The notes below the pieces were generated by a model, which was not told the DNA's origin, did no database searches, and saw nothing but the letters and a program-made list of their open reading frames with translations. From assembly GCF_003334305.1 (NCBI RefSeq), contig NZ_QOWS01000019.1: a stretch of 64,000 nucleotides of DNA; one strand, 5' to 3'. Shown one piece after another: positions 58,807 to 59,704 of the stretch. The position numbers were made by a program, and so were the translations under genes. Within the stretch, counting starts at the first letter, position 1. The number at the start of each line of letters is the position of its first letter. This DNA is from Escherichia coli (lineage in GTDB: Bacteria > Pseudomonadota > Gammaproteobacteria > Enterobacterales > Enterobacteriaceae).

Positions 58807-59704
58807 CCTGCTTTCTCCTCTCTCTGGTTTTCAGCCCCCATCATCTGTTGAGTTTCGGGAGCCGCGGTTTTGACGTTTTGCGGGGACCTGCCGTTTGTTC
58901 CCTCCGGTATTCACCATCACCTGTTTGAGAACCTTCGCCGCAAGGGGCATCACTGCCACGGCCTGACGCACCTGTCCTGGGCAGAACGCAAAATTTTTTA
59001 CCGGGTTTTGGGTAAAAAATTTTGTGGGCTGTTCATTTACCCTGGACAGTCAGTGCGGCAGGTTGTGGCTGTATCAGCTCCCGGCGACAGGGGCTTAAAC
59101 AGGTGAATGGCACCGGACACAACAACGGGCAGGAACCCGCCGCAACGACGTGAAGCGCGGTTTGCGAAACGGCGTTGCCCCTTACATCCCGGCGGCCTTT
59201 TGCCGGGATGCCGGGAGCGCAGGCCACGGCGCGACAGAGGCGGCGCGACCGGAACGGTCGCTGCAAGCCCGGGGTTTCGCGTCAGGGATGGAAGCCCGCC
59301 AGGGCGGAGACAGCTCCGCTGGCTCCGTTCACGACAGCCCGCCCCGCCAGGGGGACGCCCGGAAAAGGCATAAGCAGGAGAACAACAAAACAGACAATAA
59401 TCAGGGCAGCAGTAATCAGAGTCAGAACAGGAGGAAAAAGAGAATAATCAAAGGGAAGGTGATGTGATTTCTGACAGGTCATAAACAGAGAAGGCGGGGG
59501 AAAAGAACGGGCGCCGCAGGCGCACGTTCATCCCCGTTCCCGGAGGGAAACGGCCTTCCTGGCAGTCTGGTTGTTCATGCCCGCACAATGCCAGCAAGGA
59601 GAAAGGGGCCACCGGCGAACCAGCAGCCCCTTTATAAAGGCGCTTCAGTGCAGTCAGACCAGCATCAGCCCTGAAAAGGCGGGCCTGCGCCCGCCTCCAG
59701 GTTG

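Follow-up and report, generated by a model that had tools for sequence, protein, structure and literature searches.

This study concerns the interval at 58850-59700 of a 64,000-nt stretch of Escherichia coli DNA (the window), which is an IncF plasmid of the pECOS88/ColV kind. The interval lies in the leading region, between a ygeA homologue and hok. Its left-hand part, 58852-59170, is almost certainly this plasmid's copy of Frpo1 (ssiD or ssp1a in F), a class-1 single-stranded-DNA promoter. The element itself is already known and is not novel, and the position, strand, fold, covariation and homology of this plasmid's version are documented here. The 951 bases at 58800-59750 occur with 100% identity in pECOS88, in many ColV-type plasmids, and in many plasmids of E. 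coli and Salmonella, with at least 5000 plasmid records matching.

The strand logic of the locus is set by the origin of transfer (oriT). A sequence that we take to be the F nic sequence, with nic at 56682/56683, is found on the + strand, and the + strand is therefore the transferred strand, led by its 5' end from 56683. The traJ 5' untranslated region (UTR) and FinP are located at 55783-55894, and the - strand carries the tra genes, which are read leftward. Rightward from nic, the order is orf169 (+), ygeB (-), ygeA (-), the studied stretch, hok/sok, psiA, psiB, and a parB-like gene; with ssiE placed between orf169 and ygeB, and the hairpin between ygeA and hok/sok, this is the order in F. 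The hairpin begins ~2.17 kb from nic, downstream along the + strand. An earlier reading of the letters (the original prediction) had named the + strand as the transferred strand and as the template for the leading-region genes except orf169, and both the nic on + and the leftward tra genes on - agree with this. The features are collected in Table 1.

Table 1. Features of the ygeA-hok interval and its surroundings, in window coordinates; + is the transferred strand.
Feature	Position	Strand	Basis or remark
oriT nic sequence, GCGTGGGGTGT followed by GGTGCTTT, nic between the two	56672-56690	+	exact single match, 0.01 expected by chance
ygeB homologue (DUF932 protein), second gene of the unit	57579-58481	-	open reading frame; DUF932 annotation in pECOS88 and F
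ygeA homologue, 95 aa, first gene served by the promoter	58519-58806	-	open reading frame; position and length as F WP_000107542
F ssiD/Frpo (Frpo1, ssp1a) homologue	58835-59184	+	blastn against D90178.1, full length, E = 2e-122
Imperfect hairpin of the transferred strand, 319 nt, body of the single-strand promoter	58852-59170	+	fold, covariation
A/T-rich hairpin tip: AAAATTTTTTACC (58990-59002), loop GGGTTTTG, GGTAAAAAATTTT (59011-59023)	58990-59023	+	
-35-like hexamer TGGACA (5/6), best candidate	59043-59048	+	3' arm, within the stem
CTGTATCAG, facing a bubble of mismatches (ATCA/ATC and one T.T)	59069-59077	+	~18 template positions past TGGACA
GC-rich block, part of the same ~550-bp repeat as the hairpin	59171-59380	+	repeat comparison
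Mini-hairpin Ha: CATCCCGGC (59185-59193), 8-nt loop, GCCGGGATG (59202-59210)	59185-59210	+	
Mini-hairpin Hb: GCGC, 8-nt loop, GCGC, inside GGGAGCGC-N7-GGCGCGAC	59217-59232	+	
Mini-hairpin Hc: GCGACCG, loop GAA, CGGTCGC	59245-59261	+	
CTGCAAGCC, directly 3' of Hc	59261-59269	+	like the G4/alpha3 primase start site
Hydrophobic 66-aa frame, not a gene	59282-59482	-	
Mini-hairpin Hd: GGAGACAGC, loop TCC, GCTGGCTCC	59306-59326	+	centroid structure
Purine-rich tract of the transferred strand; mRNA sense C/U-rich and G-poor, of rut (Rho utilisation)-like composition	59381-59513	+	
Terminator-like hairpin GCGCCTGCGGCGC, then a T-rich run, downstream of hok	59511-59523	-	consensus scan only
hok mRNA 3' UTR with fbi/tac pairing and terminator	59600-59704	-	inverted repeat
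hok	59705-59866	-	
sok RNA	59864-60036		Rfam sok, 92.7 bits

The GC content of the interval is as high as 0.68-0.69 at 59100-59399; in the flanks it is about 0.40-0.55. Five nested inverted repeats jointly cover 58852-59170, and the minimum free energy of this segment as DNA is -101 kcal/mol, compared with -60.8 +/- 4.2 for 100 shuffles (z = -9.55; none of the shuffles was as good). Folding of the - strand is weaker by 9.4 kcal/mol, since eight positions of the stem form G.T pairs on the + strand. Covariation was assessed in an alignment of 11 copies, namely, the window, F Frpo1, F Frpo2, two further pECOS88 copies, ColIb-P9 ssi1-3, one Klebsiella copy, and two IncK copies. When the structure of the window was projected on these, 83% of the cells were paired (41-45% with the partners slid) and 31 pairs were changed on both sides (8-17 in the slid controls), and the covariation score of the hairpin was reached by 0 of 500 shuffles. 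At the tip, for example, TTTTTTACC/GGTAAAAAA is replaced by TCTTTGCC/GGCAAAAAG in F Frpo1. No Rfam family matched inside 58850-59700 in a search of 54000-64000 at E <= 1.

Comparison with F places the hairpin among known elements. The alignment to D90178.1, the sequence of which was taken from supplementary file 4 of Samuel 2024, shows 87.6% identity over 351 nt; identity is 93% over all 951 nt to the ygeA-hok interval of F (NC_002483) and 95.7% over 555 nt to F Frpo2. The identities vary along the element, which is a mosaic: its upper hairpin (58932-59091, 160 nt) is 98% F Frpo2-like and 72% F Frpo1-like, while the lower stem (58852-58931 and 59092-59170) and the outer flanks are 98-99% F Frpo1-like, a pattern of identities that probably arose by gene conversion between the two repeats. 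This plasmid's own Frpo2 copy is situated beyond the right end of the window, and the sole in-window match to the stretch is the stretch itself.

These results uphold the core of the original prediction, i.e., that a GC-rich, hairpin-dense stretch holds an Frpo-type promoter on the transferred strand, and the comparison with the published F Frpo sequence that it had proposed gave the full-length alignment described above. Other parts have to be narrowed or corrected. The promoter hairpin occupies 58852-59170 and not the whole ~850 bp that had been offered as a candidate, and it serves ygeA/ygeB, while psiB and ssb, the genes named at the time, are served by Frpo2. Both inverted repeats that had been quoted exist, but they belong to separate elements: the first is only the tip of the long hairpin, and the second is outside it, in the adjoining GC-rich block, and one base off the position given. 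Folding of the transferred strand, which had likewise been suggested, returned the 319-nt hairpin but reconstituted no canonical -10 hexamer in it.

In F, Frpo1 is located upstream of ygeA and ygeB, and its deletion abolishes the induction of YgeA-sfGFP and reduces the transconjugant frequency from 93% to 25% (Couturier 2023, PMC9849209). Wen et al. 2025 (PMC12672017) assigned Frpo1 and ColIb ssi1-3 to class 1 and used 5'-RACE (rapid amplification of cDNA ends) in recipients to locate the start sites. The name ssp1a was given by Fraikin et al. 2026 (bioRxiv 10.64898/2026.01.09.698686), who reported that ssp1/Frpo transcripts prime early conversion in vivo, and Samuel et al. (PMC11541004) counted 13,089 Frpo homologues in 6,006 conjugative elements. 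Transcription from single-stranded DNA, a YgeA induction that needs Frpo1, and the use of the transcript as a primer have been shown for F and IncI1; transcription by RNA polymerase with SSB (the protein that binds single-stranded DNA), zygotic induction, and priming by the transcript have been shown for F and pESBL.

If the element of the window behaves in the same way, conjugation would bring the + strand into the recipient with its 5' end leading from nic, and the hairpin sequence would be complete ~2.5 kb later and would fold into the imperfect stem-loop. The stem would mimic a duplex promoter, with the A/T-rich tip, the 3' arm carrying the -35-like TGGACA, and mismatches forming a bubble at the place of the -10. 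Host sigma-70 RNA polymerase would then bind and transcribe leftward, with the template provided first by the 5' arm and next by the downstream + strand, and would produce the ygeA-ygeB mRNA before a complementary strand exists. The same RNA, still hybridised to its template, could prime complementary-strand synthesis. Once the region is double-stranded, the hairpin could no longer form and the promoter would be switched off, leaving ygeA and ygeB silent in established hosts and in donors.

For this copy, transcriptional activity, exact hexamers, and start site are extrapolated from the work on F and IncI1. The working Frpo2-acrIIA4 cassette of Samuel 2024 starts at the equivalent of 59092 and retains the upper hairpin and the 5' arm only, and the promoter must therefore lie in 58932-59091. 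TGGACA falls inside this sufficient fragment, and the surrounding CCCTGGAC is conserved across the aligned copies and also in copies from Serratia and from insect metagenomes; in F Frpo1 and pECOS88 copy 2, CCCCTGGAC stands in its place and was misaligned by MAFFT. TGGACA would be the -35 hexamer, and the 3' arm would act as the non-template strand. The segment at 59069-59077 is likely, at low confidence, the -10 or melting region, and transcription is tentatively placed to start near 59083-59086 (template 58936-58939) and to proceed leftward along the 5' arm as far as the start of ygeA (58806). By analogy with the Frpo anatomy of Samuel 2024, the A/T-rich tip is possibly an UP-like element upstream of the -35. 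A consensus scan of 58800-59700 as duplex DNA found no canonical sigma-70 site on either strand and none toward ygeA, which fits, as weak evidence, a promoter that is silent in the duplex form. One further candidate, TTGACG-N17-TTTTGT in the lower 5' arm, had the best IncF score but was rejected: the fragment active in Samuel's cassette does not include it, and IncI1 lacks it.

Several observations weigh against an active promoter of this design. Consensus and weight-matrix scans found no canonical -10 at a workable distance from any + strand -35, and a sigma-70 weight-matrix scan of the + strand in the 11 copies returned no site that was both good and conserved. The region of the -10 candidate is poorly conserved between copies, and the assignment of hexamer and start site is tentative because of this variation. 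Furthermore, the activity of this plasmid's element is presumed from homology, and the element, being a mosaic, could differ quantitatively from F Frpo1.

The promoter hairpin is part of a larger repeat. The repeat common to all copies is ~550 bp, not 320, and reaches 59381-59415; ~460-bp repeats containing Frpo were described in IncI plasmids by Venturini et al. 2013. Within its GC-rich block lies a core (59209-59270) that is better conserved than any other piece of the repeat, with 97% identity to ColIb ssi3, 95% to an IncK copy, and 86% to a Klebsiella copy, compared with 51%, 51%, and 63% for the hairpin in the same copies. The block as a whole (59171-59385) folds no better than shuffles (z = -1.8 as DNA, -0.6 as RNA) and has 1-nt indels between copies. 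Some of its mini-hairpins carry compensatory changes. In Ha, 98.8% of the cells are paired, and two pairs are changed on both sides in 5-6 sequences, IncI1 having CACACC/GGTGTG there. Hb is invariant in the 11 copies, hence uninformative for structure, and is absent from the Salmonella and Kpn c2 type. Compensatory changes occurred in Hc in two lineages (GCATCC../..GGATGC in Kpn c1 and GTGACCG/CGGTCAC in Kpn c2), and in Hd CAGC/GCTG is replaced by CGG/CCG in both Klebsiella copies. The G.T wobbles in Ha and Hc, as read from the alignments, occur four times on the + strand for one on the other, a hint that folding takes place on the transferred strand. RNAalifold, applied to both strands of the block, did not distinguish them, partly owing to a misalignment of Ha between families by MAFFT. 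Adjacent to Hc, CTGCAAGCC is conserved in IncF, IncI1 ssi2/3, IncK c2, and Kpn c1; CAGCAAGCC takes its place in the Salmonella copies and CTGCGAGCC in Kpn c2.

A divergent second hairpin family, with the tip GCAAAAAGTTTTTG..., is present in a further sequence (L004, 6796-7420) and in Salmonella Frpo*5-7. It has the same Hc-GCAAGCC core and a downstream GGGATGGAAGCCCG...GGCGGAGAC segment; since the core is shared with this family, the block travels with more than one type of promoter hairpin. Within the papers open to search, a full-text query for the core sequence gave no match, no published role for the block came to light, and looking for accounts of G4-type signals gave nothing of use; the YfjB/HerB preprint reports no binding motif able to explain the core. 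A pattern scan of genome contigs for GGGAGCGC-N6-9-GGCGCGAC yielded nothing beyond chance matches in genomes of high GC content, and the Frpo repeat had no match in the phage collection.

From its sequence, a second single-strand function of the block is possible. In general terms, the Frpo repeat would be a composite in which the RNA-polymerase hairpin is joined to a separate functional site of ~100-200 nt on the incoming strand, which we regard as unlikely; a DnaG or Sog primase signal would be the form of most interest, and a sequence-specific insulator protecting the promoter hairpin would be the alternative. In its most specific version, the block and its core would act in the manner of phage G4, as a second initiation signal on the single strand. 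SSB would leave three small hairpins of the incoming strand uncovered, and the host primase DnaG (or, in IncI1, the plasmid primase) would begin a primer at the CTG (59261-59263), with copying proceeding leftward across the hairpins and opening a rifampicin-resistant route to the complementary strand beside the RNA-polymerase route. The near-identity of the core between IncF and IncI1 ssi3 next to so divergent a promoter hairpin, the compensatory changes in Ha, Hc, and Hd, and the wobble bias all speak for such a signal, as does the resemblance of CTGCAAGCC to CTGCAAAGCC in G4 and CTGCTAAGCC in alpha3, which stand 3 nt 3' of hairpin I at the annotated primer start. Conversion of F is, according to the literature, not abolished by rifampicin, but early conversion of F at ygeB and psiA is abolished by it (bioRxiv 10.64898/2026.01.09.698686). 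Moreover, the start triplet is not universal, given the variants of the Salmonella Frpo* copies and Kpn c2, ColIb ssi1 is without the core, and neither the fold of the block nor RNAalifold lends support. The motif alone is not rare, ~6 one-mismatch matches being expected by chance per 64 kb, and the G4 oric has only chance BLAST matches to plasmids. Taken together, a G4-type signal appears quite improbable. Against phages, the G4 oric matched only near-identical G4 relatives, and a CTGCAAAGGC candidate at 25867 was discarded, as it is inside a coding gene and without hairpins.

A terminator or insulator is the other role to be considered for the block, together with the tract to its right. Read in the mRNA sense in 78-nt windows over 59384-59513, this tract has a C/G ratio of 2.1-3.4 and 71-77% pyrimidine, and such a tract is found at every IncF copy with a different sequence each time (73-85% pyrimidine in the other IncF copies). 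The AT skew of the purine-rich + strand tract is +0.5. The composition is that of a Rho-dependent terminator, i.e., ~80 C-rich, G-poor nt followed by pause hairpins, as far as composition can indicate it. Transcription coming from the upstream unit on the psiB-psiA-hok side, and perhaps DNA synthesis too, would be halted by tract and block before it melts the Frpo hairpin or reads through into ygeA/ygeB. This would agree with the retention of the tract despite its changing sequence, with GC-rich hairpins within 150 nt of it, with the tract-block-hairpin-first gene arrangement repeated at each copy, and with ssp2, another single-strand promoter hairpin, which is a proven roadblock to complementary-strand synthesis. 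On the other hand, the support is compositional, a terminator needs no 97% identity of a 62-nt core across incompatibility groups, and the pyrimidine tract of IncI1 is farther away. Such a role is a doubtful but real possibility, and overall it is about as likely as a primase-type signal. An explanation in which the stretch encodes protein, either the 66-aa minus-strand peptide (e.g., a small membrane toxin) or an arginine-rich + strand frame (YubN/hypothetical), is highly improbable. In each of the five IncF copies, the minus frame is uninterrupted and its last 27 residues are identical, ending in ...FPGVPLAGRAVVNGASGAVSALAGFHP, deposited records carry the names 'putative transmembrane protein', 'Transporter', and 'YubN', and the Prokaryotic Genome Annotation Pipeline (PGAP) calls a 76-aa coding sequence at this place in NZ_CP027348. 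However, the frame has no Shine-Dalgarno sequence, its start varies between ATG, TTG, and GTG among copies, an 8-nt deletion shifts it in Klebsiella, and neither Pfam nor NCBIfam has a match. Its hydrophobic half is the complement of the purine-rich tract, the other frames of which are equally open and hydrophobic. In NZ_CP027348, unrelated sequence makes up the last 50 residues, and almost every difference in the N-terminal part is non-synonymous. On the + strand, three overlapping frames are open simultaneously and are disrupted by 1-nt indels between copies, one being marked by PGAP as a frameshifted pseudogene.

Nothing in the stretch codes for protein, and the 66-aa and arginine-rich + frames are composition artefacts, just as the three database names are products of automatic annotation. 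The original prediction had seen no convincing reading frame and had dismissed the + frames as GC artefacts, which stands; the minus-strand frame that it had left unsettled can be rejected as a gene, since frame, start, and protein sequence are not conserved and no known family is matched. In NZ_CP027348 (L129, 97-303, -; approximately 58805-59011 of the window), PGAP also annotates a hypothetical protein of 68 aa within the Frpo hairpin's 5' arm, in the presumed ygeA 5' UTR; this call is probably an annotation artefact.

The right-hand end of the interval belongs to hok. The ~850 bp had been taken as anonymous non-coding DNA up to that gene, but the last ~100 bp (59600-59704) are the hok mRNA 3' UTR. 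Its fbi (59639-59648) pairs with the 5' tac (60026-60035) with 90% complementarity, and beside fbi, at 59602-59633 (-), is the terminal hairpin of the hok mRNA, the second terminator-like hairpin past hok. The sok RNA is antisense to the hok leader. The fbi/tac architecture is assigned on the assumption that this mRNA is organised as in the hok/sok system of R1.

Elsewhere in the window, a homologue of F ssiE (D90180.1), a second known single-strand initiation sequence of the leading region, occupies the spacer between orf169 and ygeB (57278-57466, +; 91% identity) and carries GCGAAGC-like and AAGCGG-like motifs. Rfam matches at gathering level were obtained for CopA (IncFII replication control) and for the AS-pc02, AS-traI, and AS-traG antisense RNAs, at 23362-23453, 24440-24622, 28595-28671, and 37233-37318. 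Direct repeats of 130-300 nt with 90-99% identity link 8271-9559 to 16932-17615 and 21110-21618, 8.6 and 12.1 kb apart; they are distant from the Frpo1 stretch.

The main result is that a single-strand promoter could be recognised from sequence alone by a reader without tools; work on Frpo1 goes back to 1997, and catalogues list it in thousands of plasmids. Judged by a recombineering arm in the inverted construct of Samuel, the deletions that define Frpo in F seem to take out all of the ~550-bp repeat, block and hairpin together, and 'Frpo' phenotypes may therefore partly belong to the adjoining conserved block. If this block were a primase site or an insulator, it would be a missing piece for the conversion of the transferred strand to duplex and for the separation of the leading-region units in F-like plasmids; a primase signal, if true, would explain rifampicin-resistant complementary-strand synthesis.

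Among known systems, the element of the window is closest to F Frpo1, with which it has in common the locus (between ygeA and hok/flm), the strand, the long hairpin, and the downstream genes; it differs in the upper 160 nt of the hairpin, where it is nearer to F Frpo2. F Frpo2 (ssp1b) in turn has the same ~555-bp repeat, including the GC-rich block, and the same hairpin tip, but it is located elsewhere, upstream of ssb-yfjA-yfjB-psiB-psiA, and its flanking purine tract is unrelated and (GAA/GAG)n-like. The IncI1 class-1 elements ssi1-ssi3 of ColIb-P9 have the same architecture with conserved CCCTGGAC, TGTGG/CCAC, and CCCCGG stem motifs, and ssi2 and ssi3 have the 62-nt core in common with the window (87-97%); their lower stem, however, is unrelated sequence (51% over the hairpin), their Ha differs but is compensated, and it is ssi1 that is without the core. 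The class 2/3 promoters of F and pESBL (ssp2/'Frpo3' and ssp3) follow the same principle, a transferred-strand hairpin that reconstitutes a promoter upstream of leading-region operons, but no sequence similarity to them has been reported, and it is for ssp2 that a roadblock to complementary-strand synthesis has been demonstrated. For the block only, phages G4 and alpha3 offer a parallel, in that a strand which exists in single-stranded form in vivo bears small, GC-rich hairpins whose loops are rich in purines, with a CTGC(A/T)AAGCC-like primer start after them; they differ in that no similarity extends past the 9-10-mer, that the spacing from hairpin to CTG is 0 nt in the plasmid versus 3 nt, and that CTG is not in all plasmid copies. 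The hok/sok (flm) type I toxin-antitoxin system of R1 and F, finally, accounts for the right-hand ~100 bp with its 3' UTR, fbi/tac pairing, and terminator, and is adjacent to the promoter element but outside it.

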